A stretch of DNA of 64,000 bases, taken from Thermodesulfobacteriota bacterium (lineage in GTDB: Bacteria; Desulfobacterota; QYQD01). Position numbers and translations under genes: made by a program. The stretch's first letter is position 1. Each line of letters begins with the position of its first letter. This document shows, one piece after another, positions 39,424 through 60,356 of the stretch. The notes under the pieces were generated by a model that was not told where the DNA came from, ran no database searches, and was given only the letters and a program-made list of their open reading frames with translations. Location: the NCBI GenBank assembly GCA_031082315.1, contig JAVHLC010000001.1:221224-285223 (forward strand), written 5' to 3'.

Positions 39424-39512
39424 CTATCAGCCATCAGCTATCAGACGTCAGCAAAATATAAGGTAAACAACATAAGGCTGAATGCTGAGAGCTGAACGCT
39501 GACTGCTCATTG
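39424..39512. repeat. heptamer-based palindromic intergenic repeat (GCYATCA x4 ... GCTGANN x4), convergent-gene spacer
   Basis: AGCTATCAGCCATCAGCTATCAGACGTCAGC ... GCTGAATGCTGAGAGCTGAACGCTGACTGCT. The two halves are near reverse complements. Confidence 0.6.
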
Positions 39513-40934
39513 TTAAGGGGCCTGCAAAAATGCCCGGAGGGCCTTGTAAGTCATATAGAGATCACCCTTATGAGCAACCTCAAAAGGCGAGTGCATGGAG
39601 AGAAGCGGCGCGCCCATATCCACGATCTCCATACCATAAATAGCCAGGAACTTAGCCACGGTGCCTCCGCCTCCCTCATCAACCTTTCCCATCCCGGCGG
39701 CCTGCCAGACGACCTTATTTTCATTGAGAATTTTTCGGATCCAGCTCATATATTCGGCATTGGCATCGCTGGCCCCGTATTTGCCTCCGGATCCGGTGTA
39801 CTTGGTCAGACACACGCCATAACCCATTTTGGCATCATTTCTCTTTTCATGGACATCCTGAAAGTCCGGATCTATGGCCGCATTAACATCGGCCGATATG
39901 GCCTTGGAGCGCATTAAACAGGCATCGATGGTGTCTGACTCGATGGGAAGTTTGGCTAACCTGGCCAGGTCAAAGACAAAGCTTTCCAGGAACCTGGACT
40001 TGGCCCCGGTACTACCGTCACTACCGATCTCTTCTTTATCCAGAAACAGGGCGATGCAGGTATAGGTCGGGTCTTTTATGGACAACATGGCCGCCAGGCT
40101 GGCATAGGCTGAGGAGCGATCGTCCTGCCCGTAAGCGCCGACCATGCTGCGATCCAAACCTATCTCCCTTGCCCGGCCGGCCGGGACCACCTCCAGCTCT
40201 GCGCTGATGAAGTCTTCTTCTACGATGCCCAAATTTTCTTTTAGATAAGCCAAAATCTGTAATTTAAAACGCTCCTTGGCCTCCTTCTCTGGAAAAGGAA
40301 GGCTTCCGATCAGGACGTTTAGTTTTTCACCGACGATTATTTCGGGTAGTTTTTTCTCATATTGCGTACGCCGGGCCAAGTGGGGCAAGAGGTCGGTTAT
40401 GGTGAAGACGGGATCGCCCTCTTCTTCACCGATCACTACCTTCACCCTGGATCCATCCGTCTTGATAATGACGCCGTGCAGGGATAGCGGGCGGGTTACC
40501 CACTGGTATTTTTTAATGCCCCCATAATAGTGGGTCTTCAGAAAAACCAGGTCTACATCCTCATAGAGTGGTTTTTGTTTTAGATCGAGGCGCGGGGCAT
40601 CCAGGTGCGAGGTTACGATACGCAATCCATCCGAGAGAGGACGTTGACCAATAACCGCAAGGGCCATGCATTTGCCTTTATATATCCGATATACCTTAGT
40701 CCCTTTTGCGGCCGCCTCTACCGGCATACACCCTTGGCCAGAGACCTTTTCTACTATGGTTTCTACGGCCTCCCGTTCGGTCTTGGCGGCGTCCAGAAAG
40801 GCCATGTATTCCCTGGCAAAGGAGAAGACCTCCTTTTTGTCCTCATCATCGACTGTATCCCAGACCAGCCGGGCGGAAATGGTCAGTTCTTCCTGTAGCC
40901 GCTTTATATCTTTTGCCGTCTTTTTTCGCGCCAT
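39513..40934 (-). CDS. M18-family aminopeptidase (aspartyl/aminopeptidase-1-like)
   Basis: 473 aa. Metal-ligand region LFLDKEEIGSDGSTGAKS and overall M18/M42-like layout. Confidence 0.55.
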   Translation of the reverse strand: MARKKTAKDIKRLQEELTISARLVWDTVDDEDKKEVFSFAREYMAFLDAAKTEREAVETIVEKVSGQGCMPVEAAAKGTKVYRIYKGKCMALAVIGQRPLSDGLRIVTSHLDAPRLDLKQKPLYEDVDLVFLKTHYYGGIKKYQWVTRPLSLHGVIIKTDGSRVKVVIGEEEGDPVFTITDLLPHLARRTQYEKKLPEIIVGEKLNVLIGSLPFPEKEAKERFKLQILAYLKENLGIVEEDFISAELEVVPAGRAREIGLDRSMVGAYGQDDRSSAYASLAAMLSIKDPTYTCIALFLDKEEIGSDGSTGAKSRFLESFVFDLARLAKLPIESDTIDACLMRSKAISADVNAAIDPDFQDVHEKRNDAKMGYGVCLTKYTGSGGKYGASDANAEYMSWIRKILNENKVVWQAAGMGKVDEGGGGTVAKFLAIYGMEIVDMGAPLLSMHSPFEVAHKGDLYMTYKALRAFLQAP

Positions 40935-41120
40935 GGTAGGTTACCTCTCCCATCCTTTCCCGTTTTCCTAACATAATCACAGGTAGGGGTCAAGATGGAA
41001 AGAGAAGTCCTGTTTCTAAAAAATCCTTGACAAGGCTGGCTTACATGGTTATTACAGGCGTACATTGCTCCTTGCCCCTGCATTAAGGCAGTGGCCAAAA
41101 GTCCATAAGGAGGTTCTAAG

Positions 41121-41513
41121 ATGGGAGTCCCAAGGAGATACGAAACTATTTTTATTGCCAAGCCAAATCTGTCCCCTGATGATCTCAAAAATCTGGCCGA
41201 CAAGATGAGAGATATCATGGTTCAGGGTGGCGGCCAGATCGTTAAGTTTGATGAGTGGGGTGTAAAGCGCCTGGCCTATGCGGTCAAGAGGCATAATCAA
41301 GGCTTTTATTTTTTCACTGACTACGCCGGCACCCCGGCTCTGGTCAAAGAACTGGAAAGAAATCTCAAGATCGACGACCGGGTGATAAAGTACCTAACGG
41401 TCAAAATAGAAGATGCCCTCCATGCGGAGTCGCTCCAGGTAGAAGCCGAAGAAGAAAAAGCGAAAGAAGAACCGGCTTCGGTGGATAACCCACCTGCGAA
41501 AGCGGCTGAGTAA
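41121..41513 (+). CDS. rpsF: 30S ribosomal protein S6
   Basis: RYETIFIAKPNLSPDD...FDEWGVKRLAYAVKRHNQGFYFF plus an acidic C-terminal tail. Confidence 0.9.
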   Translation: MGVPRRYETIFIAKPNLSPDDLKNLADKMRDIMVQGGGQIVKFDEWGVKRLAYAVKRHNQGFYFFTDYAGTPALVKELERNLKIDDRVIKYLTVKIEDALHAESLQVEAEEEKAKEEPASVDNPPAKAAE

Positions 41514-41552
41514 TCCCGTAGAGTAAAAGAATGGCATTGACGAGGAGGCATC

Positions 41553-41801
41553 ATGGCTAATTATAATCCAAGAAAGAGAACATTTATCCGTCGTAAAATA
41601 TGTCGTTTCTGCGCCGACCGTAGCTTGAAAATCGACTATAAAGATTCCCGCACCCTTAGATTCTTTATTACCGAAAGAGGCAAAATTTTACCGAAGCGTA
41701 TCTCCGGTAATTGCGCCGTACACCAGCGCCAACTTACCCTGGCCATTAAGCGCGCCCGTAATATTGCCCTGTTACCATACACGATTACTATCACTAAATA
41801 G
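41553..41801 (+). CDS. rpsR: 30S ribosomal protein S18
   Basis: [59 protein letters not shown]. Confidence 0.9.
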
Positions 41802-41812
41802 GAATACGTGGC

Positions 41813-42766
41813 TTGGAAGAGAGAACTGGCGGAATCCCCTGGAAAGGTATCCTCCGGGGGACAATGGTGGTTTCTTTCTTTTGTTTATCCCCGGGTACCA
41901 TACCAATTTTAGGTAGTATCATTGGTATTTTTACGCCCATAGCTACCCTTTTTTATCTGGTCAAGCTAGGGTGGGGCTATGGCCTGGCAGTCCTGGGTAT
42001 CGCCCTTGTCTTTTCCATCTTTTTGTGGCCCTTGTTTGGAAGTGGCTCTGAGTACTTTTTTGTAGAAATTCTCATATTGGGGCCGGTCCTCTTTAGCTTC
42101 CTCAAGAGGGGTTTTTCCATCACTAAAACAGTAGGTTACGCTACCGGCCTCTTGCTTTTATTGCTATCCGCATACCTGATCTTATGGGGCATTAAGACCG
42201 GATATAATCCTTATCAGGCAGTGGTTTCTGAAATTAACCGGGGCATGGAATCCTCCCTTCGTTTTTATGAGCCGCTAAACCTTCCAAAAACCACAGTGGG
42301 GGCTATGCGAGATGCCTTACAGGATATTAAAATACTGGTGGCCAGGCTTTGGCCGGGTTTTGCCGCAGCCTCTTTATTAGTATTGGTATGGATGAATGTC
42401 TGGCTTGGTGACCGCATCCTGGAGCGCTATGGTCTGGTGAATTTTCAATTTGGCGACCTGTCGCAATGGAGCCTTCCGGACGTTCTCGTCTGGTTGGTCA
42501 TCTTGGGCGCCGGGTTGGCCCTCCTACCCTACCCTGGTCCACAGACTGTGGGCACAAATCTTCTGATTTTTTTTGCTATGGCCTATCTTTTCCAGGGCCT
42601 GGCTATAGTAAGTTTTTATCTCAAAAAATATGGATTTTCCCGTTTTAAAAGGATATTATTATACAGCTTAATATGGATTCAGACCTACATGATAATAATT
42701 GTAGCGCTGGTGGGGCTGTTTGACATCTGGGCGGACTTCCGGAGATTAAAGAAAGCAGCGGATTAA
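41813..42766 (+). CDS. DUF2232/YybS-like integral membrane protein
   Basis: 317 aa, polytopic. Sits between rpsR and rplI, as yybS does in Firmicutes. Confidence 0.55.
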   Translation: MEERTGGIPWKGILRGTMVVSFFCLSPGTIPILGSIIGIFTPIATLFYLVKLGWGYGLAVLGIALVFSIFLWPLFGSGSEYFFVEILILGPVLFSFLKRGFSITKTVGYATGLLLLLLSAYLILWGIKTGYNPYQAVVSEINRGMESSLRFYEPLNLPKTTVGAMRDALQDIKILVARLWPGFAAASLLVLVWMNVWLGDRILERYGLVNFQFGDLSQWSLPDVLVWLVILGAGLALLPYPGPQTVGTNLLIFFAMAYLFQGLAIVSFYLKKYGFSRFKRILLYSLIWIQTYMIIIVALVGLFDIWADFRRLKKAAD

Positions 42767-42789
42767 CCTATTCACCGCAGAGACACAGA

Positions 42790-42960
42790 GGGCACAGAGA
42801 AAGAATTAAACGGCAGACAGCTATCAGCAGTCCGCTTAACGTGTTGTTTGTCTTAGTTTTTTGAGGAATTCGGGTTCCCCCTTTCACAAAGGGGGATAAG
42901 GTAGTCAATGGTCAGAAGTAAAAGCTGAAAGCTGATGGCTGAAGGCTGACAGCTAAACAA
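42790..42960. repeat. heptamer-based palindromic intergenic repeat with central TCCCCCTT-TCAC-AAGGGGGA hairpin
   Basis: CAGCTATCAGCAGTC...GTGTTGTTTGTCTTAG...GCTGAAAGCTGATGGCTGAAGGCTGACAGCT. Shares the TGTTGTTTGTCTTAG module with the 53762 and 59950 copies. Confidence 0.55.
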
Positions 42961-42981
42961 AGTGGTAAAGGGGGGTATCTT

Positions 42982-43428
42982 ATGCAGGTCATACTAATAG
43001 AAGATATAAAGGCCATGGGCAAAGAAGGGCAAATAATAAAGGTTACCGATGGCTATGCCCGGAACTTTCTTTTGCCTCAAAGCAAGGCATTAGAGGCCAC
43101 ACCTAAAAATATAGCCCTCTGGGAAAAAAAGAAGGCCGAGATACGAGCCAGACTGGAGAGGGAAAAGGCTAAGGCCGTTGAACTATCTAAAAAAATAGAG
43201 TCCGGCTTATGTATCATTAAACATAAAGTAGGTAAAAATGACAAACTCTATGGCTCGGTAACTACATCCGATATAGCCGATTGTCTTGCGGCGCAGGGTA
43301 TTAACATAGATCGTAAGAAGATACAGATGGCCGAACCCATAAAGAGTCTGGGGGAGTTTTCCGTATCTATAAGGCTCTATCCAGAGATTACGGCTACTGC
43401 CAGGGTACAGATTGTAAAGAATGAATGA
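42982..43428 (+). CDS. rplI: 50S ribosomal protein L9
   Basis: MQVILIEDIKAMGKEGQIIKVTDGYARNFLLPQSKA. Confidence 0.9.
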   Translation: MQVILIEDIKAMGKEGQIIKVTDGYARNFLLPQSKALEATPKNIALWEKKKAEIRARLEREKAKAVELSKKIESGLCIIKHKVGKNDKLYGSVTTSDIADCLAAQGINIDRKKIQMAEPIKSLGEFSVSIRLYPEITATARVQIVKNE

Positions 43429-43439
43429 CAAATTCAAAG

Positions 43440-43545
43440 CTCAAAGTTCAAAAAAAGCCTAAATGACTAAATGACGAAAACTTCACGGTCTGGGTTTTGC
43501 CATTTGTCATTTATTTGAACTTTGGATTTTGGCCTTTAGATTTTC
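43440..43545 (+). terminator. long imperfect palindrome (CAAAGTTCAAA...AATGACTAAATGAC / GTCATTTGTCATTTATTTGAACTTTG) downstream of rplI
   Basis: Inverted repeat seen directly. Function as terminator or attenuator ahead of dnaB is inferred. Confidence 0.35.
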
Positions 43546-43572
43546 CGGCTGTTTGGCCGGAACAGGTAGTTT

Positions 43573-44931
43573 ATGGCTAGAAAGACAAGAGAAACTATAA
43601 CCCCTCCGGCCAGGGTCCCGCCGCAGAATATCGAGGCTGAGCAGTGGGTCCTAGGCGGCATCTTAATCGAAAACGGGGCGCTCTTCCGGGTCTTAGAAGT
43701 AATCTTGGGAGAAGAGTTTTACCGGGAGGCACACCGCAAGATATTTGCCGCCATGCTGGGTCTCTATGAAAAAAATGAGCCCCAGGACATCGTCACGGTA
43801 TCGGATTTTCTCCGCAATAGAAATGAGCTGGAAGACGTAGGGGGTATGTCCTATTTAGCCACGTTAGCGGATACTGTACCCACTGCTGCAAACATCGTCC
43901 ATTATGCAAAGATCATAAGGGAAAAAGCCATCTTACGCGCCCTGATCCAGAAAACCTCAGAGATCAGCTACCGCTGCTATGAAAAGCACGACGATGTGGA
44001 TAATATCCTCGATGAGGCCGAGCAGGCCATCTTTGAAATTTCGCAGGCCAAGGTCAAGCAATCTTTTTATCCAATAAAACATATTATAAAAGATAGCTTT
44101 AAAAAAATCGAACAGCTTTATGAGCGCAAGGAGCTTATAACCGGTGTCCCCACTGGATTTGATGATATAAATAAGCTCACGGCCGGGTTTCAACCTTCAG
44201 ATCTTATAATTATCGCCGGCCGTCCCAGTATGGGCAAGACCTCCCTGGCCCTGAATATTGCGCAACATGCCGCCATCAAGGCAAACATTCCAGTGGCTAT
44301 CTTTTCCCTGGAGATGTCTAATGAACAATTGGCAATGCGCATGCTCTGTGCCGAGGCCACGGTTGATGCCAGAAGTGTGCGCACCGGATTTTTGACTGAA
44401 AAAGATTGGCAGAAGTTGACGCAGGCGGCCAGTCACCTTTCGACCGCGCCTATCTTCATTGATGATACCCCGGCGATTTCCATACTGGAGATGCGTGCCA
44501 AGGCCCGGAGGCTGAAATCGGAGCATGGCCTGGGATTGGTTATAATCGACTACCTGCAACTGATGCGTAGCAGAGGGCCTGTTGAACGGCGGGAACAAGA
44601 AATATCCGAGATCTCCCGCTCACTAAAAGCCATGGCCAAAGAACTCCACGTGCCCGTGGTTGCCCTTTCCCAGCTCAACCGGCGGGTGGAGGAAAGGCCG
44701 AACAAGCGGCCTCAACTGTCGGATTTGAGGGAGTCCGGCGCCATCGAACAGGACGCTGATGTCATCATGTTCATTTACCGGGACAAGGTCTATAACAAGA
44801 ATAGCGATGATATGACTGCCGAAGTCATTATCGGTAAGCAGCGCAATGGGCCTACCGGCCTGGCCAAGCTGACCTTCCTCGAACAATATTCATGCTTTAA
44901 GGATCAGTCCCCTACTGATCTCGTTGTATAA
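43573..44931 (+). CDS. dnaB: replicative DNA helicase DnaB
   Basis: 452 aa. Walker A GRPSMGKTSLALNIAQ and DnaB C-terminal RecA-like domain motifs. Confidence 0.9.
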   Translation: MARKTRETITPPARVPPQNIEAEQWVLGGILIENGALFRVLEVILGEEFYREAHRKIFAAMLGLYEKNEPQDIVTVSDFLRNRNELEDVGGMSYLATLADTVPTAANIVHYAKIIREKAILRALIQKTSEISYRCYEKHDDVDNILDEAEQAIFEISQAKVKQSFYPIKHIIKDSFKKIEQLYERKELITGVPTGFDDINKLTAGFQPSDLIIIAGRPSMGKTSLALNIAQHAAIKANIPVAIFSLEMSNEQLAMRMLCAEATVDARSVRTGFLTEKDWQKLTQAASHLSTAPIFIDDTPAISILEMRAKARRLKSEHGLGLVIIDYLQLMRSRGPVERREQEISEISRSLKAMAKELHVPVVALSQLNRRVEERPNKRPQLSDLRESGAIEQDADVIMFIYRDKVYNKNSDDMTAEVIIGKQRNGPTGLAKLTFLEQYSCFKDQSPTDLVV

Positions 44932-44947
44932 ACTTGAACACAGGCTT

Positions 44948-47158: not shown

Positions 47159-47207
47159 ACCTCTGCACCTAATAGTGAGAGGTTACTATCATATCAGAAG
47201 CTTTCTT

Positions 47208-48485: not shown

Positions 48486-48499
48486 AATAGAACCACAGG

Positions 48500-49261: not shown

Positions 49262-49267
49262 CGCTCA

Positions 49268-49404
49268 CCGCGCTACAACTGGATTTTTACGAAAGCATTA
49301 TCCCTGCCTTAGTAACCGTTCACCGTTATCAGTTCACCGTTGTCCGTGAAAAGCACGAAAAGCTTCTTTTTTGGTGAACGTTGAACGGTAAACGGTGAAC
49401 ATAT
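49268..49404. repeat. palindromic GTTCACCGTT-motif region between the UvrD-like helicase and MBL hydrolase genes
   Basis: CAGTTCACCGTTGTCCGTG ... GGTGAACGTTGAACGGTAAACGGTGAAC inverted repeats around an A/T-rich centre. Confidence 0.4.
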
Positions 49405-49406
49405 CC

Positions 49407-51644
49407 CTACCTTATTATAGATAAGGTCGTATAACCAAGATGGAGGGTTTTGAGTCCGGTCCCGTCAAAGTGTACAACCACCTTCTGTCCACCCAGGACC
49501 TGTCTTACCTGGCCTGTTCCAAATATAGTATGATGTACATGCGCCCCTGCCTGTAGCATTCCATCCCTTGTCTTTAATCCGGCCTCGTCGTCTGCATCTC
49601 TTATTTTGTCTGTTGTCCGTTGTCCGTTATCAGTAGCCTGAGGCATGAAGTCTCTGGTCTCAGGTCTGCGGTCTGTAGTCTCAAACATAGATCGCGGGAT
49701 ATCATTTATAAAGCGGGATGGCCGGGCCATAATATGACCGTCTTTCGGGGTATAGGTAGAAATCGGATAGGAAAGGAAGAGGTTTTCTTTGGCCCTGGTC
49801 ACGGCTACATACATTAATCTTCTTTCTTCTTCTATAGCCTCATCGGACTCACAGGCATAACTGGAAGGGAACCGCCCCTCGGCGAGGGATATAATAAAAA
49901 CAGTGTGCCATTCCAGCCCCTTGGCCGAATGTATGGTGGATAGGGTCAATCTCTCTGTATCTCTGTCACTCATAGCGGCATCGGCCGCGCCGGCCTCCGG
50001 GGGTTCCAGGACCATATCGGTCAATAAGGTCTCCAACGATTCATAATTATTTGTAATAACGGCCAATTGTTCTAAATCCTTTAACCTTTTAGGGTAGTCG
50101 TCATAATATATGCGCCTTAAAATCGGTTCGTAGTAAGCCATTAATCGCTCCAGGCGCGCCTGGGGTTTCAATCCCGGTGTGCTGATAGCTTCCAGCGCCT
50201 TGCAAAGATCCGCAAGACCTTCTTCAATCCGGGGGCCGATGGGATATTCTCCAAGGCGGGAAATGGAAAACTCCGTATCCCTTAACCAATCCATTATGCG
50301 CTGGCAGGTTTTATGGCCGATGTTATTTATTAAAAGCAGAATACGATGCCAGCTTAAAAGATCACAGGGATTCACCACCACGCGGAGGTGCGCCAGCACG
50401 TCTTTGATATGAGCGGCTTCCATAAGCTTAAGGCCGCCATATTTAACAAAGGAAATCCCCGCCCTGGTAAGTTCAAGCTCTAAATTAAAAGAATGAAAGC
50501 CTGCCCTGAAAAGAACCGCTATCCCGGATAGAGGGACGCCGCTTCTTCTTAGGGATAGTATTCTTTCGCATATAAAACGTGATTGGGCATTTTCATCCGG
50601 GACCGGTACCAGACGGGCGCTGACTCCACTTGGCCGGCGTGTGAAAAGGCATTTAGTATATTTTTCCCTGGCCTTGGCAATAAGGGAATTGGCCAGGGAC
50701 AATATCTGTTGGGTGCTACGATAGTTTTCTTCTAATTTTATGATGCGCGTCCCGGGGAAGTGGTTTGGGAACTCCATGATATTCTTAAAATTAGCCCCCC
50801 GGAAGGAATAGATAGACTGAGAGTCATCGCCTACCACCATGACATTATTGTGGGTGGCCGCCATAAGCCGGACAATATCGGCCTGGAGCCTGTTGGTGTC
50901 CTGATATTCGTCCACCATGATATACTGGAAACGCCGGGAAACCAGGTCACGGATTTCGGGCCGCTCTTCCAGGAGATTTTTCCATTTAACCAGAAGGTCG
51001 TCATAATCCATGAGTTGATGGCTATTTTTATATTCTGTATAAAGAAAATATAATTTTTTCAGGGCCTCGCTATGTTCCATGAAATGGAGAAATTCTTCCT
51101 CCAGGGCCTGTTCTATAGTTATAGCCTTATTGACTGCCTTGCTGAATATCTCGGCAATGGTATCCTTTTTGGGGAAACGCCTGGCCTTTTCATCCAGGCC
51201 AAGGCTTAAACGGAGCAAATTGATGGCGTCTGCGCTGTCGGAACGATCCAGGATGGTGAAAGAAGGGGAAAAGCCGATATGATGGCTGAATTTTCGGAGC
51301 ATCTGGTTGGCCAGGGAATGAAACGTACCGCCCCTCACCTGCTGACAGGTGTCTGAAAGTATGAGGCTGGCCCGCTGCAGCATCTCCCGCGCCGCCCTGC
51401 AGGTAAAGGTCAGCAGCAAGATAGACTGGGGCGGGATGCCTTTTTCAACCAACCTGGCTACCCGATAGACCAAGGTGCGTGTCTTGCCGCTGCCCGCACC
51501 GGCTATAACCAGAGCAGGACCGGTAAGCATGCATACAGCTTCCAGCTGTTGAGGATTCAGGGCTTTTTCGTAGTCAATCCCCCCTAACCCCTCTTTCCCC
51601 AAGGGTGGAATTGCTTCTATATTCCTTTGAAACTCATAGGGCAT
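49407..51644 (-). CDS. UvrD/Rep/PcrA-family ATP-dependent DNA helicase
   Basis: 745 aa. Walker A AGAGSGKTRTLVYR, DEYQDTN, and a C-terminal UvrD_C-like tail. Confidence 0.8.
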   Translation of the reverse strand: MPYEFQRNIEAIPPLGKEGLGGIDYEKALNPQQLEAVCMLTGPALVIAGAGSGKTRTLVYRVARLVEKGIPPQSILLLTFTCRAAREMLQRASLILSDTCQQVRGGTFHSLANQMLRKFSHHIGFSPSFTILDRSDSADAINLLRLSLGLDEKARRFPKKDTIAEIFSKAVNKAITIEQALEEEFLHFMEHSEALKKLYFLYTEYKNSHQLMDYDDLLVKWKNLLEERPEIRDLVSRRFQYIMVDEYQDTNRLQADIVRLMAATHNNVMVVGDDSQSIYSFRGANFKNIMEFPNHFPGTRIIKLEENYRSTQQILSLANSLIAKAREKYTKCLFTRRPSGVSARLVPVPDENAQSRFICERILSLRRSGVPLSGIAVLFRAGFHSFNLELELTRAGISFVKYGGLKLMEAAHIKDVLAHLRVVVNPCDLLSWHRILLLINNIGHKTCQRIMDWLRDTEFSISRLGEYPIGPRIEEGLADLCKALEAISTPGLKPQARLERLMAYYEPILRRIYYDDYPKRLKDLEQLAVITNNYESLETLLTDMVLEPPEAGAADAAMSDRDTERLTLSTIHSAKGLEWHTVFIISLAEGRFPSSYACESDEAIEEERRLMYVAVTRAKENLFLSYPISTYTPKDGHIMARPSRFINDIPRSMFETTDRRPETRDFMPQATDNGQRTTDKIRDADDEAGLKTRDGMLQAGAHVHHTIFGTGQVRQVLGGQKVVVHFDGTGLKTLHLGYTTLSIIR

Positions 51645-51658
51645 AAGTATTCTTAAAG

Positions 51659-52333: not shown

Positions 52334-53760
52334 TAATTATTGGAGCAGGGAAGGATGAAATAGAAATTGTTTCCCTCCGGAACCGGTTCATAGCCCACCA
52401 CGCCGCCGTGTACCTCGATGACGCTCTTTATAAAGTGCAGGCCGTGTCCGGTGCCTGATTGATTTGTGGCATTAGCGCCACGGTAGCCTTCATCGAAAAT
52501 ACGGGCCGCCTCTTCCGGTGCAAGGTGGAGGCCGGTTGTAAATACGTTGAATTTAATCCCGCACTTACCATGGCCGAAACAATCACTGATCCGCTCCCGG
52601 CCAAAGGCCAGGCGCTTCACACGCCGGCCGTCAGCGGCTATTACGCCCTGCGTGTACTTGACGGCATTAGAGAACAGATTGGCATAGACCTGTGCTATTA
52701 AACCGGCATCGACGGTAAGTTCGATATCCTCTTCCGGTATCCCTCCCATACGGTTATCAATCTCAACTCCCCTGTCCTCTAGTTGTTTTTGATAACGTTC
52801 CAACTGGGGGGTGATAATATCCCGGTTAAAGTTGATATGACTTTTTCGCAGGGTCCATTGCCCGCGCTCGAAATGCCCGCGACGGAATAAGGTCTCCAAA
52901 AACAGGCTGGTGTTTCTGTAATGCTGATAGACCTGCTCATAGTCCTGCTTCATTTTATTTGTCAATTCATCCAGTTGATCTAAGATGCCGTCCGGGTAAT
53001 CTCTATTTTCAACTAAAACCCGGGAGAGAGTCTCTCTCAATTTATTTTCAACTACCTGACATTGCGCTATCTTTTTCTGGAGGTTTTTAAAAAACACCTG
53101 GTAGTAAATGTTGGGCGTAATTACATTGTGTTCAATATCAGCCACCAGGCTGTTTATAAACTTGATGTGGTCGATATTTTGTTGCCAGACGATCTTGGCA
53201 TTGATGTTATATCCGATACGGTTTGCGTATTTTTGGAAGAAAAATTTATCCTGATCGGCAAAACCTCTTGCCGGAAACACTTCAAGCATGCCGATAAGCT
53301 GGTCTTTGGCATAGAACGGTAGTCTTTCCGTCAGGAGGCGGTTGCCTTTGATAGGAAAGACGTAAGATTCATCGGCCAGGTAGGCCTGATTTTCTATACG
53401 TACGGCCGCATTGGTATCCGATTCTTCAAGATAGAGGTCTTTGGCGCTGGAACAGACCAGCCTCAAGTTATTTACAGGACTGACCAGGTAGAGCCTGCTC
53501 TCCAGGTTAAAATATTCCTTCGGGACTATAACGCAGACCCGGTAGAGATTCTGCAGGGTATCGTATTCCTGGGCCAGGTCAAAAAAAGTCTTTAAGGCAT
53601 TGCTTTGTATCTCTGAAAAATTATACCGCGCGTAATCTCCCCTTTTTTCCTGGACGCGTCTTCTAACCAGGTCCATATCCGCTGAGATGGCCACTTCTCT
53701 GTCCCTACCCCTGTTAGTATTCATCCGGAACCCCAAAAATTCCGGATGAGCTGTCAGCAC
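52333..53760 (-). CDS. cytoplasmic GAF-like sensor histidine kinase (HATPase_c family)
   Basis: 475 aa. C-terminal G-boxes (GTGHGLHFIKSVIEVHGG). No TM segments. Confidence 0.5.
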   Translation of the reverse strand: MLTAHPEFLGFRMNTNRGRDREVAISADMDLVRRRVQEKRGDYARYNFSEIQSNALKTFFDLAQEYDTLQNLYRVCVIVPKEYFNLESRLYLVSPVNNLRLVCSSAKDLYLEESDTNAAVRIENQAYLADESYVFPIKGNRLLTERLPFYAKDQLIGMLEVFPARGFADQDKFFFQKYANRIGYNINAKIVWQQNIDHIKFINSLVADIEHNVITPNIYYQVFFKNLQKKIAQCQVVENKLRETLSRVLVENRDYPDGILDQLDELTNKMKQDYEQVYQHYRNTSLFLETLFRRGHFERGQWTLRKSHINFNRDIITPQLERYQKQLEDRGVEIDNRMGGIPEEDIELTVDAGLIAQVYANLFSNAVKYTQGVIAADGRRVKRLAFGRERISDCFGHGKCGIKFNVFTTGLHLAPEEAARIFDEGYRGANATNQSGTGHGLHFIKSVIEVHGGVVGYEPVPEGNNFYFILPCSNN

Positions 53761-53761
53761 T

Positions 53762-53865
53762 CAGCTATCAGCGTTCAGTTTAATGTGTTATTTGTCTTAG
53801 GTTTTTGCTGACAGCTAATCGCTGATCGCTGAAAGCGTGAAGCCGGAAACAGTAGTTTCCGAATG
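53762..53865. repeat. inverted copy of the composite intergenic repeat (heptamer arms + GGAAAC-N4-GTTTCC hairpin + CTTCACGCTTTCAGC module)
   Basis: The reverse complement reads CATTCGGAAACTACTGTTTCCGGCTTCACGCTTTCAGC..., matching the elements beside both tRNA-Ser genes. Confidence 0.55.
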
Positions 53866-53900
53866 AATACTGCTTATTTTTCATAATAGCATCTGTGTCC

Positions 53901-53936
53901 AAAAAAAGAAAGGCGCAGGTTGAGCCTGCGCCTTTC
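53901..53936 (-). terminator. rho-independent terminator of the por operon
   Basis: 12-bp stem GAAAGGCGCAGG/CCTGCGCCTTTC with loop TTGAG, followed on the minus strand by a run of seven T. Lies 25 nt downstream of the porB stop. Confidence 0.7.
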
Positions 53937-53960
53937 GAAATATTACTAAATCCAGGACAG

Positions 53961-54902: not shown

Positions 54903-56077
54903 ATCTCCCTCACTCCGATCATTTCGTAAAGTTGCTTCGGTCTCTTTTTGGCATAAGTAAATGCCTTTGAAACTATCTCTTCAAAATTTTCTACCGTAAC
55001 ATCACGACCACCCAGGCCGGCAATAAAGTTATAGACCTTCGGCCGGCCACGTTCTGCATAGAGGGCGGCCTTGATCTCTTCGGCCACCGGGCCGCAGGCC
55101 CCACCCGGAGATAAAGCCCGATCTACTACGGCCAGTGTCTGGGCGCCGGCGATAGCCTTTTTGAACTCCGGAGCCGGGAAAGGCTTCCAAAGGCGGAAAC
55201 GTACCAGACCTACCTGCATCCCTTTTTCGCGCATCTTATCAATGGCGGTCATGGCGGTCTCGGAGATGCTCCCCATCGTAATGAGAATAACTTCGGCTCC
55301 TTCGGTCTTATATGACTCCACGGGGTTGTAATAACGCCCGAAGAGGTCGCCGAATTCCTTCCAGGCCTTGAGAACGACCCTTTTAGAGTTAATCAGGGCC
55401 TCATTCGTGGCCTTTTTAGCCTCCGTATATATCTCTGGTATCCCTACCAGACCCATAGACACCGGCTTTCTCGGATCCAGGCGCACCTTCGGCTTGTATG
55501 GGGGGAGATACTTATCCACCTCGGCCTTATCCAGTATCTCAATGGGTTCAATGACGTGGCTCAAGGTAAAACCATCCAGGTTGACAATGACCGGCAACAA
55601 GACCTTAGAATCTTCGGCCACCCGGAAGGCATGCAGGACCAGGTCAAAGACCTCCTGCCCGTTCTCCGCAAAGGTCTGTATCCAGGCGATATCCTGCTCG
55701 GCCATGATGTCGCTATGATCATTCCATATACTAATTGGGCCGGAAAGCGCGCGATTGGCTACTACCATGACGATAGGCAGTCTCATGGCAGGGGCGATAA
55801 AGAGAATCTCGTGCATAAGGGCGAGGCCCTGTGAGCTTGTAGCCGTAAAGGTCCGGGCGCCTGCGGCTGAAGAGCCGATACAACAGCTCATAGCGGAATG
55901 CTCGGATTCTACCGGAACAAAAGCGGCGTCCAGTTCCCCATCTGCCACTACCTCCGAGAGGTGTTCAACAATATGTGTCTGTGGAGTGATCGGATAAGCC
56001 GCAATAAGATCGACATCCGCCAATTTGACGGCCTCACTGGCGGCTATGGAAACCTCCATCCCAATGCGTTTTGCCAT
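54899..56077 (-). CDS. porA: 2-oxoacid:ferredoxin oxidoreductase alpha subunit
   Basis: 392 aa. Typical alpha-subunit size and sequence. Overlaps porB by 4 nt. Confidence 0.8.
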
Positions 56078-56082
56078 ATTAA

Positions 56083-56376
56083 CTAATCCTCCTCTAAAAC
56101 CATGGTAATGGCGTCTTTAGGACATTCTTTGGCACAGATGCCGCAACCCTTGCAGTAATCCAGATTGACCTTGTAATACCCCTCCTCTGCCGGGACCATA
56201 GCCAGATCAGGGCAATAAACCCAACATAACCCACACTTAATACATTTGTCCCTATCCACAACCGGCCGTTGCGACCGCCAATCTCCTGTTTTGAAGGCGC
56301 GGGAACTGCCCGGCTGCCGTATGACACAGCCCAAATCGAGTTCTTTCCAACCCATTACGGCGTCTATCTTTGCCAT
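56083..56376 (-). CDS. porD: 2-oxoacid:ferredoxin oxidoreductase delta subunit (2x[4Fe-4S] ferredoxin-like)
   Basis: 97 aa with two CxxCxxCxxxCP motifs (CIKCGLCWVYCPD; CKGCGICAKECP). Confidence 0.8.
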   Translation of the reverse strand: MAKIDAVMGWKELDLGCVIRQPGSSRAFKTGDWRSQRPVVDRDKCIKCGLCWVYCPDLAMVPAEEGYYKVNLDYCKGCGICAKECPKDAITMVLEED

Positions 56377-56377
56377 A

Positions 56378-56947
56378 TTACGACTCCCTTATGATAGTTT
56401 CAGTCATGGCCCGGTTGAAGGCTGTCTTGTTCTTCTCCGCAATGCGCCCGAAGCGTTTATCAATGGCCTTTCCTAACGCATCGCTACTTACTATACCGGT
56501 AGATTTAACTAAGGCCCCAAGCATGGTCGTATTGGTTATGGGGACCCCCATGCTCTCCATGGCGATCTTGGTAGCATCCACCGTAGCAATCTTTGCCTTG
56601 ACATTTAATAACCCGGCCATCTCTTCCGGTGTCTTGGAGGTATTTATAATTACCGTCCCTCCGTCTTTCAGTCCGGCAGTCACGTTGATGATTTTAAGAA
56701 TGCTCGGATCGAGGACCATGACTACATTTGGTCCATAAACCTTTTCCCGCGTCCTGATGGGCTTATCGCTTACCCTTATAAAGGCCGCTACAGGCGCCCC
56801 CCGCCGTTCCGGGCCGAAACTCGGAAAGGCCTGCGCATACTTCCCGTCATCAATGGCCGCAATGGCCACCAGTTCGGCTGAAGTAACCGCTCCCTGGCCA
56901 CCCCTGCCATGGATTCTGATCTCGATCATGGTTTGATTCTCCTCCAC
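56378..56947 (-). CDS. porG: 2-oxoacid:ferredoxin oxidoreductase gamma subunit
   Basis: 189 aa. MIEIRIHGRGGQGAVTSAELVA N-terminus characteristic of gamma subunits. Gene order porG-D-A-B. Confidence 0.8.
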   Translation of the reverse strand: MEENQTMIEIRIHGRGGQGAVTSAELVAIAAIDDGKYAQAFPSFGPERRGAPVAAFIRVSDKPIRTREKVYGPNVVMVLDPSILKIINVTAGLKDGGTVIINTSKTPEEMAGLLNVKAKIATVDATKIAMESMGVPITNTTMLGALVKSTGIVSSDALGKAIDKRFGRIAEKNKTAFNRAMTETIIRES

Positions 56948-57077
56948 CCAGTCTGCTTCTTCTGTAAATTGGTAACCGATTTATTGCTAACAGTGAGGCC
57001 TTTGCGTAGCACGCAGCATTTTTTTTGTCAAGTCTTTTGGCTTGTTATTAATTTAACAAAGACTATTGCCTGTAGCT

Positions 57078-57677
57078 TTATGCCCCGGTCCTGGCTTCTA
57101 ACGCCCGCCTGAGGGTCATTTCATCATTATATTTAAGGTCTGTACCCATGGGAACTCCGCAGGCAATACGGGTCACAGTTACATCTTCATTTTGAAGCAA
57201 TCCGGCCAGGTAGGCAGCGGTGGCTTCTCCAGCCACAGTTGGGCTGGTCGCCAAGATTACCTCTTTCACCTGGCCGCTTTTTATACGTAAAAGAAGCTCT
57301 TTTATCTTAAGCTCGTCCGGGCCAATCCCATCCATAGGCGAAAGCACACCATGCAAGACGTGATAACGCCCCTTAAAGCCGCCGGATTTTTCTATAGCCA
57401 TCATATCCCCCGGGTCTTCGACTACGCAAATCGCATCAGTGGTTCGTTTGGGGTCTGCACAGATGGCACAGGGATCAGTTTCCGTAAAACTGAAACAGGT
57501 AGAACAAAACCGTATCTTTTCCTTGACTTCATCAATACTTTGGGCCAGTTCTTTGGCCCTCACATCGGGCCAACGGAGTATAGCCAAGGCAAGACGTGTC
57601 GCCGTCTTTTCTCCAATACCAGGTAAGTTGCCCAGATTTCGGATAAGTCGTAAAAGCGCCGGTGGGAAAACGGACAT
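57078..57677 (-). CDS. recR: recombination protein RecR
   Basis: 199 aa. HhH N-terminus, C4 zinc finger (CSTCFSFTETDPCAICAD) and Toprim domain. Confidence 0.9.
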   Translation of the reverse strand: MSVFPPALLRLIRNLGNLPGIGEKTATRLALAILRWPDVRAKELAQSIDEVKEKIRFCSTCFSFTETDPCAICADPKRTTDAICVVEDPGDMMAIEKSGGFKGRYHVLHGVLSPMDGIGPDELKIKELLLRIKSGQVKEVILATSPTVAGEATAAYLAGLLQNEDVTVTRIACGVPMGTDLKYNDEMTLRRALEARTGA

Positions 57678-57685
57678 GGCTATGA

Positions 57686-58000
57686 TTACAAGAGCCCCGG
57701 GATCTTAAAGCCACCGGCGACCTGGGCCATCTCTTCCTGCATCATCTGCTGAGATTTCTTCAGGGCATCATTTACCGCAGCCAAGATCAGGTCCTGTAAC
57801 ATATCAAGGTCGTTAGGGTCTACGACTTCTCGTTCTATCTTTATAGATACTATTTCCTGCCGGCCATTGGCTACGACCGTTACCATCCCGCCACCCGCAG
57901 AGCTTTCCACGGTCTTGTCGGCCAGTTCCTCCTGTATCTTGGCCATCTTAGCCTGTATTTTTTGTGCCTGTTTAACTAATCCTCCCAGATCTTTCACCAT
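57686..58000 (-). CDS. ybaB: nucleoid-associated protein YbaB/EbfC
   Basis: 104 aa. [37 protein letters not shown]. Confidence 0.85.
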
Positions 58001-58052
58001 ATACTCCTTATACTCCTTAGAAACGTTTTTACGGGCGTTCGGCTATCAGCAG

Positions 58053-59690
58053 TCAGCGATCGGCTCTTTTTTCTATCTTGATCTCCTCAATATGTCCGCC
58101 TAAGATGCTTAACGCCTCTTGAACCAGGGGATGTTTTACTATCTCCTCCCGGGCGGTGCGTTCCCGGCCGGTCTCCTCTGCTGTTTCACGACCAGGGGTT
58201 GCCACTGATTCTGAAAGTATGTCTATTCTTATGTCTCGCTGGTAATATTCCCGACAAATCTCGCGCAGCCGTGCGTTATAAAAAGGATCTTTTAAGAGAT
58301 CGGAGAGGGAATGATCGGCAAACACAATAACCAGTGTATCATTTTTTACCGTCAACCTCTGACATTGCTGTAGAATCGAGGCCAGAGGGAGGCTCTTGAT
58401 TTTAACGAAACCTAAAAAGTCCTCCGGTCTGCCAGATACAAAGGGGGCTTCTGGTTCTTTCCCTTCGTGCCTGCAGCTATCCAGGCCTGACCCCGGAGGA
58501 TAGGCCGTGGGTTGATCCTGGATGGGTAACGGACCCTCATTCTCTTTAATGCCAGAGGCCAGAATGGAAATCTTTTCCAGTATCTTTTCCACTGGAATAA
58601 CATCCTGTAACAGGCTCGCTCGCATCAGTATCATCTCAAGGGTCAATCTGGGCTGTGAAGATCTTCTCAATTCCTCCCACCCCTGGATCAGCAGCTGGAG
58701 ATACAGGTAAATGGTCTCGGTACTTTTTGCCTGCCCCAGTCTATCCAGTTCTTCTTTTTCATCGTCTGCAACATTTATTAACGGACCTGGTTTCCGGCAG
58801 GTCTTAATAATGACCAGATTTCGAAGGGCCTCTACCAGGTCGGCATAAAACCGCTTTAGGTCCTGACCATGGGTATAAATCTGATCTATCAGGTCGATAC
58901 TTCGCTCAAGGTTATGTTCAAATATGGCCACTATCATCTCTATAACCAGCCTCTGGTCAACAAGGCCAAAGACAGCGGCTATCTCTTCGTCCCCAATTTC
59001 ATCCCCACCATAGGAGATAATCCGATCCAGGAGGCTCAGGGCATCACGCATACTCCCCTCGGCCTCCCGGACAATAAAGCGCAGTCCTCCTGCGCTCAGC
59101 TTTATACCTTCCTGATCGATGATGGCCTTAAGGTGGCCTGTAATCACTGACGCGGGAAGCCGTTTAAAGTCATAGCGCTGGCAGCGCGAAAGGATGGTAA
59201 TGGGAATCTTGTGCGGTTCTGTAGTAGCAAAAATAAAGATGACATGTGCCGGCGGCTCCTCTAAGGTCTTGAGAAGGGCATTAAAGGCTGGTTCGGTGAG
59301 CATGTGCACTTCATCGATAATGTATATCTTATACCGGCATTTGGCGGGAAGGTACCTGGCGTTTTCTCTTAACTCGCGGATCTCGTCAATACCGCGGTTA
59401 GAAGCCCCGTCTATCTCATAGATATCTACAGATGAACTATTTGTGATCTCCCGGCAGACAGGACATTGATTGCAAGGTGTTTCCGTAGGACCGCTTTCGC
59501 ATTCTAAAGCCTTGGCCAGGATGCGCGCCACTGAGGTCTTCCCGACACCACGGGCTCCCGCAAAGAGGTAGGCATGGGCCACCCGTCCCTGCCGGATGGC
59601 ATTTCGCAGGGCCTGGACCACATGACTCTGACCCATGACTTCAGAAAAATTTTGCGGCCGCCACTTTCTGGCCAGGACGAGGTAGGCCAT
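58053..59690 (-). CDS. dnaX: DNA polymerase III subunit gamma/tau
   Basis: AAA+ Walker A GARGVGKTSVARILAKAL, zinc module CNQCPVCREI, SRC motif. Start set at MAYLVLARKWRP, which is preceded by GAGGA. The ORF track's 42-aa N-terminal extension to 59816 runs into the intergenic repeat. Confidence 0.85.
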   Translation of the reverse strand: MAYLVLARKWRPQNFSEVMGQSHVVQALRNAIRQGRVAHAYLFAGARGVGKTSVARILAKALECESGPTETPCNQCPVCREITNSSSVDIYEIDGASNRGIDEIRELRENARYLPAKCRYKIYIIDEVHMLTEPAFNALLKTLEEPPAHVIFIFATTEPHKIPITILSRCQRYDFKRLPASVITGHLKAIIDQEGIKLSAGGLRFIVREAEGSMRDALSLLDRIISYGGDEIGDEEIAAVFGLVDQRLVIEMIVAIFEHNLERSIDLIDQIYTHGQDLKRFYADLVEALRNLVIIKTCRKPGPLINVADDEKEELDRLGQAKSTETIYLYLQLLIQGWEELRRSSQPRLTLEMILMRASLLQDVIPVEKILEKISILASGIKENEGPLPIQDQPTAYPPGSGLDSCRHEGKEPEAPFVSGRPEDFLGFVKIKSLPLASILQQCQRLTVKNDTLVIVFADHSLSDLLKDPFYNARLREICREYYQRDIRIDILSESVATPGRETAEETGRERTAREEIVKHPLVQEALSILGGHIEEIKIEKRADR

Positions 59691-59694
59691 TTTC

Positions 59695-59790
59695 TTTGAT
59701 CCTCGTTTCGTAAGCGCTCCGGTATCAGCGTTCAGACCCTCTGTAGGCAGACTGATTACTGAACGCTGATAGCCAATAGCTAAAATTAAT
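59695..59790. repeat. palindromic repeat unit (TATCAGCGTTCAG - 23 nt - CTGAACGCTGATA) in the dnaX leader
   Basis: Perfect 13-bp inverted repeat seen directly. Same heptamer vocabulary as the other intergenic copies. Confidence 0.5.
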
Positions 59791-59897
59791 GATAGCCAGG
59801 CGCCCCTGCGGCACACGAAAGTTCTTGCTGCCGTTGCTTCCTTCCGGACCTAGCGGGGTTCGCAAGTTTCCGTTGCGCAGGACCCGGCTATCAAATT

Positions 59898-60024
59898 GTT
59901 TAGTGTTCACCCGGAAACTACCGTTTCCGACTTCACGCTTTCAGCCATCAGCTATTAGCTATAAACAAGACAAACGACATCTGAGCTGAAAGCTGATAGC
60001 TGACCGCTGATTGCTATTTAAAAC
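59898..60024. repeat. composite intergenic repeat copy A (hairpin CGGAAACTACCGTTTCCG + CTTCACGCTTTCAGCC + GCTGANN heptamer array), abutting tRNA-Ser(GGA)
   Basis: About 95% identical to 60129..60262 over about 125 nt. Confidence 0.7.
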
Positions 60025-60117
60025 TGGCGGAGAGAGTGGGATTTGAACCCACGGTCCCGCTTTTGGCGGAACACACGATTTCCAGTCGTGCTCCTTCGGC
60101 CGCTCGGACATCTCTCC
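60025..60117 (-). tRNA. tRNA-Ser (anticodon GGA), 93 nt including the encoded CCA
   Basis: Minus-strand sequence GGAGAGATGTCCGAGCGG...CACGA-CTGGAAA-TCGTG...long variable arm...GTGGGTTCAAATCCCAC-TCTCTCC-GCCA. The 7-bp acceptor stem and 5-bp anticodon stem were checked by eye. Confidence 0.8.
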
Positions 60118-60128
60118 GCGGGTTACCT

Positions 60129-60262
60129 AATAAGTGTTCATCAGGAAACTACCGTTTCCGACTTCACGCTTTCAGCCATCAGCTATTAGCTATAAGCAAG
60201 ACAAACGACATCTGAGCTGAAAGCTGATAGCTGATAGCTGACTGCTGATTGCTATTTAAAAC
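60129..60262. repeat. composite intergenic repeat copy B, abutting tRNA-Ser(CGA)
   Basis: AGGAAACTACCGTTTCCGACTTCACGCTTTCAGCCATCAGCTATTAGCTATAAGCAAGACAAACGACATCTGAGCTGAAAGCTGATAGCTGATAGCTGACTGCTGATTGCT. Confidence 0.7.
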
Positions 60263-60356
60263 TGGCGGAGAGGGTGGGATTCGAACCCACGTAGGGGTGA
60301 TTAGCCCCTAAGTCGATTTCGAGTCGACCCCGTTACGGCCACTTCGGTACCTCTCC
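60263..60356 (-). tRNA. tRNA-Ser (anticodon CGA), 94 nt including the encoded CCA
   Basis: Minus-strand GGAGAGGTACCGAAGTGG...GTCGA-CTCGAAA-TCGAC...long variable arm...GTGGGTTCGAATCCCAC-CCTCTCC-GCCA. Confidence 0.8.

Follow-up and report, generated by a model that had tools for sequence, protein, structure and literature searches.

A dispersed family of palindromes built from seven-base units in a Thermodesulfobacteriota contig, with features of a miniature inverted-repeat transposable element

The 64,000-nt stretch of contig JAVHLC010000001.1 analyzed here (positions 221,224 to 285,223, called the window throughout) comes from a Thermodesulfobacteriota bacterium and carries, among its housekeeping genes, a series of intergenic palindromes built from heptamers with a GCTGA core. 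What kind of element are these palindromes, and do they move? An earlier note, made from the letters of the window alone, had described them as a lineage-specific family resembling repetitive extragenic palindromes (REP) or miniature inverted-repeat transposable elements (MITE). The presence of the repeat family in the window is confirmed in this study. As to its nature, we favor with moderate confidence a selfish, non-autonomous mobile hairpin repeat, which forms the body of a MITE in this Thermodesulfobacteriota lineage and whose copies decay to bare palindromes.

Exact matches to GCTGANNGCTGA number 20 in the window against 0.09 expected from dinucleotide-preserving shuffles, and all of them lie within 39.4-60.3 kb. 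With one mismatch allowed there are 39 against 3.5 expected, 36 of them inside 39427-60248. Full sites follow a common plan of 3-5 nnTCAGC units, a loop and 3-5 GCTGAnn units. The elements are 90-156 bp long, contain no open reading frame (ORF) and occupy seven sites in the window, with related copies at unrelated loci; in size and in copy number they agree with small non-coding repeats of the REP/MITE kind. Folded as RNA, the full sites of the window reach -32 to -52 kcal/mol (z-scores from -3.7 to -6.2). All seven sites that the earlier note had listed exist: E1, E2, E3, E5 and E6 are two-armed palindromes, the site at 58039-58064 is a single arm, and that at 59722-59772 is short. The hairpin module GGAAACTACYGTTTCCGRCTTCACGCTTTCAGC is found in exactly the three copies described, on the minus strand in E3 and on the plus strand in E5 and E6. 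The loop motif TGTYRTTTGTCTT is present too, but in four copies instead of three, on the plus strand in E2 and E3 and on the minus strand in E5 and E6. Several details are corrected here. Pairing between the arms is confined to the 5-nt cores, and the 2-nt spacers are neither complementary nor anti-complementary, pairing at chance level (97 doubly paired against 91 expected). E3 is longer than first given and ends in terminal inverted repeats, and two palindromes of sister families (E7 and E8) had been overlooked. The elements are as follows, in window coordinates.

39421-39512, no strand: E1, a bare GCTGA-type palindrome that occupies the entire 89-nt spacer between the convergent radA-like gene (38053-39423, plus strand) and M18 aminopeptidase gene (39513-40934, minus strand); left arm 39424-39452, loop 39453-39476 with a weak loop motif AAGGTAAACAACA, right arm 39477-39509; RNA fold -32.1 kcal/mol on the plus strand and -34.5 on the minus strand (z -3.7 and -4.2).
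42810-42956, no strand: E2, a GCTGA-type palindrome between DUF2232 and rplI whose interior is long; left arm 42817-42835, right arm 42924-42956, and between them the loop motif at 42842-42854 and a distinct GC hairpin CCCCCTTTCACAAAGGGGG at about 42877-42895.
43434-43531, no strand: E8, a two-layer array palindrome in the rplI-dnaB spacer; outer arms of three TCAAAnn units and of nnTTTGA, inner arms of two octamers TAAATGAC and of GTCATTTA.
49315-49400, no strand: E7, a sister-family palindrome of four nnGTTCA units, a loop and four TGAACnn units, in the spacer between a lactamase_B-like gene and uvrD.
53716-53871, minus strand (canonical orientation): E3, a full composite MITE of 156 bp; 15-nt terminal inverted repeats 53716-53730 and 53857-53871 (AGTATTCATCCGGAA and TTCCGAATGAATACT, 93% complementary); body arms 53747-53779 and 53807-53832 around a loop 53780-53806 with TGTTATTTGTCTT; end hairpin B in 53716-53746 and end hairpin A (CCGGAAAC-N4-GTTTCCGG) in 53833-53865.
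58039-58064, no strand: E4, a solo arm TCGGCTATCAGCAGTCAGCGATCGGC where ybaB and dnaX adjoin; one of its GCTGA units provides the TGA with which dnaX stops (58053-58055, minus strand).
59722-59772, no strand: E4b, a short palindrome with two units per arm (ATCAGCGTTCAG and CTGAACGCTGAT) and a 12-bp perfect stem, between the signal recognition particle (SRP) RNA gene (59791-59889, minus strand) and the dnaX start (59690); fold -27.7 kcal/mol, z -3.9; identical in contig L127.
59902-60017, plus strand: E5, a composite that keeps only its left end (terminal repeat and hairpin A, 59902-59940); arms 59941-59959 and 59985-60017, loop 59960-59984; it ends 7 nt from the 3' end of tRNA-Ser(GGA) (60025-60117, minus strand); fold -48.8 kcal/mol, z -6.2; an ortholog is present in L127.
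60133-60255, plus strand: E6, a near-copy of E5 with the right arm one heptamer longer, between tRNA-Ser(GGA) and tRNA-Ser(CGA) (60263-60356, minus strand); fold -51.8 kcal/mol; its likeness to E5 starts exactly at the element left end AGTGTTCA, and a 7-nt indel separates the two.

Part of the support for the mobile reading comes from the composite form, of which E3 is a full copy and E5 and E6 have one end left, whereas E1, E2, E4 and E4b are either bare palindromes or partial ones. When metagenomes were scanned with the loop motif, related copies turned up on contigs of the same lineage (L124, L128, L129, L136, L137 and L138), together with L127, an ortholog of the window region 46.9-60.1 kb. 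E3 is 76-81% identical to the copies in L129, L136, L137 and L138. Read in canonical orientation, a full composite copy consists of the terminal repeat AGTGTTCATCCGGAAAC, a 4-nt loop and GTTTCCGG (end hairpin A), about five TCAGC units, a loop of the form AAAAA..AAGACAAAYAACA..TTAA, 4-5 GCTGA units, and CCATCCGGAA..TTTTCGGATGGAAACT, which make up end hairpin B and the other terminal repeat. The terminal inverted repeats are thus 15-17 nt long (AGTGYYCATCCRGAAAS), with a small hairpin at each end, and ends of this MITE type are shared by copies in L129, L136, L138, L186, L246 and L216. Perfect flanking direct repeats were found at five of eight full copies (AGAT, AGTT, ATTT, AGCAT and AATCT in L129, L136, L138, L246 and L216). 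These target duplications are AT-rich, 4-5 bp long (6-7 with the terminal A/T counted), and have the form TA-N2-3-TA. An alignment of end hairpin A from 12 copies shows changes on both sides that retain pairing at three of ten pairs; its covariation (0.164, against 0.114 in shuffles and matched by 10 of 500 shuffles) gives modest support to the hairpin. Composites that have both the GGAAAC hairpin and the loop motif occur in related Thermodesulfobacteriota contigs only, and a looser composite, with the same ends around a GCTGA palindrome, is also found in metagenome-assembled genomes (MAGs) of Desulfatiglans, Desulfobacteraceae and Zixibacteria.

The earlier note had allowed that all copies might be segments of one duplicated tRNA region. 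The family is dispersed instead: the gene contexts of the tRNA and housekeeping sites are unrelated to one another, and copies with the same modules lie beside unrelated housekeeping genes in contigs of the lineage. It had also proposed a comparison of related genomes, and this comparison reveals a rapid turnover. Insertion, loss, replacement, in-place inversion, nesting and change of arm length in 7-nt steps all occur on the time scale of strains that are 95-99% identical. Over 13 kb the L127 contig shares 95-97% identity with the window, and at window positions 47170 and 51650 it has two insertions, each about 110-115 nt long, that are absent from the window. Both are a sister palindrome of GTCAnnn units, a loop and TGACYnn units, about 90% alike and in opposite orientations, and the first is also absent from the outgroup L259. 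The E3 site has three different fillers in three strains (the window, L127 and L262), that of L262 being a palindrome nested within the loop of another palindrome. L262 (contig JBMOLA010000006.1), whose DnaB is 98% identical, has neither E3 nor E2 (other arrays are found in place of the latter). At the E1 site it has the right arm only, adjoining different array elements; its E7 (15826-15922) stands at the same site but flipped whole, arms and loop together; and its rplI-dnaB spacer contains an unrelated 231-nt filler where the window has E8.

The DUF2232-rplI spacer of L259 and L260 is 23 and 68 nt long, respectively, and has no E2; in L259, L260 and L261 (DnaB 84-86% identical) rplI and dnaB overlap or are 4 nt apart, without E8. 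Because relatives at this distance have short or overlapping spacers, E2 and E8 are dispensable insertions. E2 in the window and in L001, L002 and L003 (96-99% identical) differs by whole 7-nt units in both arms. Contig L001 begins at window position 39513, the first base after E1, which is the expected effect of a dispersed repeat on short-read assembly.

On the mobile reading, the body is an imperfect palindrome with arms of 3-5 heptamers, each of a fixed 5-nt core and two free bases. Full copies would be moved in trans by a DDE-type transposase encoded elsewhere, and the bare palindromes would be end-less derivatives or would move by another route. The elements are probably near-neutral for the host, to which they would add a stable hairpin in 3' untranslated or intercistronic RNA. 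The arms may breathe by 7-nt slippage, and selection would leave the survivors in the few bases after stop codons. The survivors are almost exclusively intergenic and typically start no more than 10 nt from a stop codon.

The bare GCTGA palindrome extends far beyond this lineage, so that the family as a whole is not lineage-specific as had been supposed. The full-palindrome pattern gave at least 120 matches in bacterial records taken as one genome per species, and four consecutive GCTGAnn units gave at least 120 matches in viral contigs. Among the matches listed, the record titles name about 19 phylum-level groups as well as viral contigs. They include Acidobacteriota (the most frequent), Nitrospira, Planctomycetota, Verrucomicrobia, Gemmatimonadales, Chloroflexi, Bacteroidales, Balneolaceae, Elusimicrobia, Omnitrophota, Zixibacteria, NC10, Chlamydiota, Binatia, Polyangia/Myxococcales, several Deltaproteobacteria groups, Alpha- and Betaproteobacteria, Rubrobacter, Trueperaceae and Patescibacteria. 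Several of the matches are on long-read contigs of Mb scale, and all carriers among the matches listed are uncultured.

The anatomy of the bare form was analyzed from about 200 non-redundant elements. The five core positions are conserved at.94 (G),.99 (C),.98 (T),.97 (G) and.99 (A), followed by two free bases, and four units per arm is the commonest size. Loops range from 1 to more than 60 nt and are mutually unrelated. The order of the arms is nearly invariable: within 100 nt, TCAGC precedes GCTGA 211 times and the reverse is seen 6 times. Arms end in phase with an AGC half-unit (-5 to -3, from position weights over 400 flanks), with nothing conserved beyond it. Read each on its own strand, the two arms have spacers of the same composition. 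An Acidobacteriota MAG (L211, 6453-6788) contains a very long palindrome of GTCATCG/CGATGAC type with about 30 units in one arm, and therefore arrays can exceed the usual four units by far.

With respect to genes, 128 of 203 elements lie between co-directional genes, 39 between convergent and 18 between divergent genes, and two are inside ORFs; the background gene pairs are 1205, 324 and 315, respectively, so that divergent spacers are about 2-fold under-represented among the elements. The preference for convergent spacers and tRNA flanks suggested earlier is supported in part, and the sharper rule concerns the upstream stop codon, whose distance to the arm peaks at 0-10 nt. TAG is frequent among these stops because T+AGC forms a stop. 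A 34-kb tailed phage (IMGVR_UViG_3300045936_000120, with portal, HK97 capsid, terminase and tape measure genes) has about 24 copies, which occupy almost all of its gaps between co-directional genes. No transposase or Y1_Tnp gene was found in this phage. Within it the loops are wholly different in length and sequence, as are the spacers, and the cores are 94-99% conserved.

GCTGA is not the only core of this kind. Control cores of the same composition also form stretches in viral contigs (GTCGA at least 120, GACTG 81, GCAGT at least 120), and two of them build palindromes that likewise have a fixed arm order (GCAGT..ACTGC 60 against 0, GTCGA..TCGAC 29 against 3). Their spacers are often homogeneous, with a diversity of 0.46-0.49 against 0.70 for GCTGA. 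The abundance of these arrays makes GCTGA one family among many and rules out that it is a uniquely favored core. A core-blind scan recovered further palindromes with GTCGTT/AACGAC, AAGTT/AACTT, GAAGGC/GCCTTC, CAGAA/TTCTG, AATGA/TCATT and other cores. A seven-base period dominates: in a 1.1-Mb sample, biased by its GCTGA seeds, period 7 accounts for 358 arrays and 80 inverted pairs, period 6 for 78 and 1, period 8 for 19 and 3, and period 9 for 10 and 0, and about 30 of the 80 period-7 pairs have cores other than GCTGA. A period of seven that places TGA in all frames was considered as a reason; it is true for GCTGA, TGACY and TGAAC, but in further families TGA is missing or sits in the opposite arm. 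Split elements flanking a gene, as an autonomous form would have, were also rejected, as 20 left-then-right arm pairs 100-3000 nt apart are no excess over other combinations. Paired variants of the core showed 7 compensatory against 19 non-compensatory changes, both small numbers.

Several results weigh against the mobile reading. E3 itself has no clean target duplication. No transposase with such ends was found in the window, in related loci (25 of 67 families listed) or in the phage. Terminal repeats are absent from E1, E2 and the generic bare set, where nothing is conserved beyond the AGC half-unit, and target duplication at 200 bare palindromes gave no signal above shuffled flanks; bare palindromes thus lack terminal repeats (beyond the arrays themselves) and target duplications, yet they behave as clean insertions. 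Since the distribution of bare palindromes is much wider than that of composites, calling them degraded MITEs may reverse the true descent. The phage copies, with differing loops and spacers and kept cores, do not follow a master-copy pattern and fit selection on, or recognition of, the cores, and about 24 of them in 34 kb would be a heavy load for a purely selfish insert. Finally, conserved cores with free spacers and loops, fixed arm order and the period of seven are not accounted for by this reading.

These difficulties lead to other explanations. One tentative possibility is that period-7 heptamer-array palindromes are a distinct pan-bacterial and phage-borne class of element, with machinery of their own or a conserved cellular factor that reads them. 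Such a class would be marked by 5-nt cores with two free bases, an arm order fixed within each family of cores, arms that end sharply and in phase, and insertion beside stops and into the loops of older palindromes, with neither terminal repeats nor target duplication. Its mechanism could be, for example, a heptamer-reading nuclease or recombinase, or hairpin-templated synthesis; the GCTGA family would be its most visible member and the window MITE a carrier that captured one. It is rather unlikely, in our judgment, that the palindromes are instead RNA elements used by host or phage. The transcript would form a zipper-like hairpin of 5-bp helices and 2x2 internal loops between the upstream stop and the next start, as an intercistronic processing or stability site, or to bring stop and start together for re-initiation, and a conserved factor would read the GCUGA/UCAGC cores. 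RNase III sites in T7 and REP hairpins in E. coli operons are analogues. The proposal would account for cores that are 94-99% conserved over about 19 phylum-level groups among the matches listed while spacers and loops are free, for the filling of co-directional phage gaps, for stops 0-10 nt upstream and starts often 0-25 nt downstream (frequently without a Shine-Dalgarno sequence), for the stable predicted folds, and for a right arm that gives TGA in all three frames on either strand. It is opposed by the dispensability of the elements, as close relatives have the same genes adjacent or overlapping without them, and by the unrelated fillers at the same spacers in 98%-identical strains. The composites have no consistent orientation to transcription either (E3 is canonical on the transcribed strand; E2, E5 and E6 are reversed), the equal spacer composition of both arms points to symmetry at the DNA level, many other cores share the architecture, some without TGA, and no Rfam family matches.

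Local growth of simple sequence without any transposition is unlikely as the whole explanation. Inverted repeats near gene ends would expand by 7-nt slippage and hairpin template switching, and families would arise since only arms of one repeated core remain complementary after register shifts. The exact 7-nt unit indels between near-identical strains, the inversion of the whole E7 in place, the dominance of period 7 over 6, 8 and 9 and the abundance of GTCGA, GACTG and GCAGT arrays with often homogeneous spacers are all in agreement with it, as is the report of Mrazek 2007, cited in PMC4679880, that heptanucleotide repeats are the commonest long simple repeats in prokaryotes. Such growth does not account for insertions of 110-115 nt whose sites are empty in a sister strain and an outgroup, with two copies 90% alike in opposite orientation, and leaves unexplained the terminal repeats and target duplications of the composites, the loop motifs and modules common to copies at unrelated loci, and the same 5-nt core across phyla. 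By analogy with omega, small dimeric proteins might bind the heptads cooperatively in DNA, the arrays being dispersed sites for a nucleoid-associated or silencing protein. The unit of exactly 7 bp with a 5-bp core, arms of typically four units in fixed inverted arrangement, spacer preferences mirror-symmetric between strands and the omega/parS heptad precedent (PMC9499535) would suit this. We consider it very unlikely, given that the window, the related loci (again 25 of 67 families listed) and the phage offer no candidate protein linked to the arrays, that many cores coexist per genome and turn over between strains, and that placement follows stop codons and not promoters, with divergent spacers under-represented. 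The mobile repeat is the reading we retain for the window, and the description as REP/MITE-like stands in part: the family is dispersed, non-coding and palindromic and has MITE features, but it has no GTAG foot of the REP kind, and its bare form is without MITE ends.

If dedicated machinery does move or read the bare palindromes, they would represent a widespread class of bacterial and phage DNA element with a new mechanism. The carriers are mostly uncultured lineages of soil, sediment and groundwater, which are not represented by model organisms. The strict 7-nt period across unrelated cores is also relevant to the long-standing puzzle of why heptanucleotide repeats are in excess in prokaryotes. 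In practice, the elements break short-read assemblies, mark strain-level variation, supply stop codons (dnaX, radA) and fill intercistronic gaps of phages; whatever their biology, they therefore matter when MAGs are assembled, strains typed and genes called.

The genes around the elements in the window include the radA-like and M18 peptidase genes, rpsF-rpsR-DUF2232-rplI-dnaB, lptD, a folC-like gene, uvrD, rhomboid and histidine kinase genes, a 2-oxoacid:ferredoxin oxidoreductase operon, recR-ybaB-dnaX, the SRP RNA gene, the two tRNA-Ser genes and tadA. The DnaB protein is 98% identical to a protein named "MAG: Thermodesulfobacteriota bacterium" and 71% identical to that of Thermosulfuriphilus ammonigenes, the nearest cultured relative. 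No transposase, no Y1 or REP-associated tyrosine transposase (RAYT; Y1_Tnp) and no IS200-like protein was found among the window genes scanned in 36-64 kb. Elements supply the stops of two genes, the TGA of dnaX inside a GCTGA unit and the TAG of radA (39421-39423), which overlaps the outer AGC half-unit of E1. In L262 the radA stop is at the same codon position (about 5568-5570), where a TGA marks the border to another array element. The elements do not serve as terminators of the genome: a scan for terminators flagged none of them, and a canonical bidirectional intrinsic terminator at 53908-53936, whose GC-rich stem of 12 bp has an A run on one side and a T run on the other (53903-53940), is separate from E3 and 32 nt away from it. 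This terminator is downstream of the oxidoreductase operon. TTTT is found in 10% of arm flanks and in 3% of random background windows.

The glycan locus that fills the first part of the window is free of the repeat, as the earlier note had seen. No period-7 array occurs in 1-39 kb despite 12 intergenic gaps of at least 50 nt, and gaps with any period-7 palindrome are 0 of 12 in the glycan part against 7 of 13 in 37-64 kb (Fisher one-sided p ~0.004). The locus (1-37000, which holds these 12 gaps) has a G+C content of 0.444 against 0.493, with all genes on the minus strand; it fits a recently acquired island, or one long operon intolerant of hairpins.

Other repeats were observed nearby. Heptamer-like CAGAG/CTCTG runs (GCAGAGACACAGAGGGCACAGAGA) lie beside E2 (42770-42800) and also in L262 (9110-9135), and a short CAGAG...CTCTG hairpin is found 3' of the M18 peptidase gene in L259 (50-75; an 85% relative); these runs may be older remnants of another family. 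The uvrD gene (49407-51644, minus strand) holds two in-frame direct heptamer arrays at 49606-49685, TTGTCCG three times and GGTCTnn five times, which encode a linker ETTDRRPETRDFMPQATDNGQRTTD joining the helicase core to the C-terminal part; array DNA is thus readable as protein. Just upstream of ybaB, at 58000-58019, TATACTCCT is repeated 2.2 times and reads on the minus (coding) strand as a tandem duplicated AAGGAG ribosome-binding site.

Database searches placed the elements in no known family. The window and 14 element-rich loci matched only SRP RNA and tRNAs in Rfam at the gathering threshold; with E up to 5 no match covers an element, and a weak sX4 match touches only the right arm of E5. 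Compared by BLAST with the plasmids of PLSDB, the phages of GenBank and E. coli genomes, the elements had no true match. Plasmid pKNA01 of the cultured organism Komagataeibacter nataicola (NZ_CP019876.1, about 68810-68898; L565) has a perfect (GCTGATT)13 microsatellite in an unannotated gap; it shares the GCTGA core, but is a plain direct repeat without an inverted partner. A full-text literature search for the repeat strings and for heptamer palindromes matched only primers and papers on heptamer repeats, and the general heptamer-palindrome architecture has apparently no description in the literature searched. Two known systems were rejected by their sequences: the "class 3" Y1 repeats of Acidobacteria and Planctomycetes with a "CnGA foot" have the unrelated sequence CCGAGCCGCGACCGTnAGGGAGCGG (PMC6006769, Table S1), and integron attC sites would have GTTRRRY/RYYYAAC core sites, which are not present at the element ends.

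Like the bacterial MITEs Chunjie of Geobacter uraniireducens, Correia and QMITE2, the composites are small (about 140-160 bp), non-coding and intergenic (PMC3184786, PMC10969869), and they have terminal inverted repeats, fold stably, and occur in copies that vary in size or are truncated; short target duplications, also typical of MITEs, flank five of the eight full copies. They differ from MITEs in a body that is a heptamer palindrome with free spacers, in ends that are themselves hairpins, in that no partner insertion sequence was found in the window or the related loci, and in that the same body occurs without MITE ends in many phyla among the matches listed. For Chunjie, terminal repeats of 21 bp and direct repeats of 9 bp are described, against an AT-rich target duplication of 4-7 bp here. 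Coxiella QMITE2 and Geobacter Chunjie also occur as truncated MITEs that have lost their ends and resemble REPs (PMC10969869).

The likeness to REPs and to their hairpin-forming doublets (REPIN) lies in extragenic imperfect palindromes of many copies, often just 3' of genes and inside operons, without target duplication and with hairpins in RNA and single-stranded DNA. Unlike REPs, no GTAG/GTGG (or CGTC) foot is present in 400 flanks, which have only the AGC half-unit; the arms are heptamer arrays of 26-33 nt rather than a stem of 7-20 bp; loops are unrelated between copies; and no RAYT is found among the window genes scanned. The omega (ribbon-helix-helix) heptads of pSM19035 are likewise runs of 7-bp units, direct and inverted (PMC9499535), but they are few sites in the promoters of one plasmid with a known binder, whereas the present arrays have many cores, are dispersed after stop codons and have no linked protein in the window, the related loci (25 of 67 families listed) or the phage. 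The short tandemly repeated repetitive (STRR) sequences and TTTTGAA repeats of cyanobacteria and the TAACTGA repeats of Beggiatoaceae are also tandem heptanucleotides, intergenic and close to start codons (PMC4679880; bioRxiv 10.1101/2022.06.06.494920), with a patchy phylogenetic spread and a function that is not known. Those are direct repeats with a fully fixed unit, and Maribeggiatoa has 169 direct sets against one indirect, whereas here two arrays stand in fixed inverted order and form a palindrome in which only five of seven positions are fixed. In the unit itself, there is a resemblance between the TCAAAnn units of E8 (43434-43454) and the TTCAAAA repeat of Nostoc.

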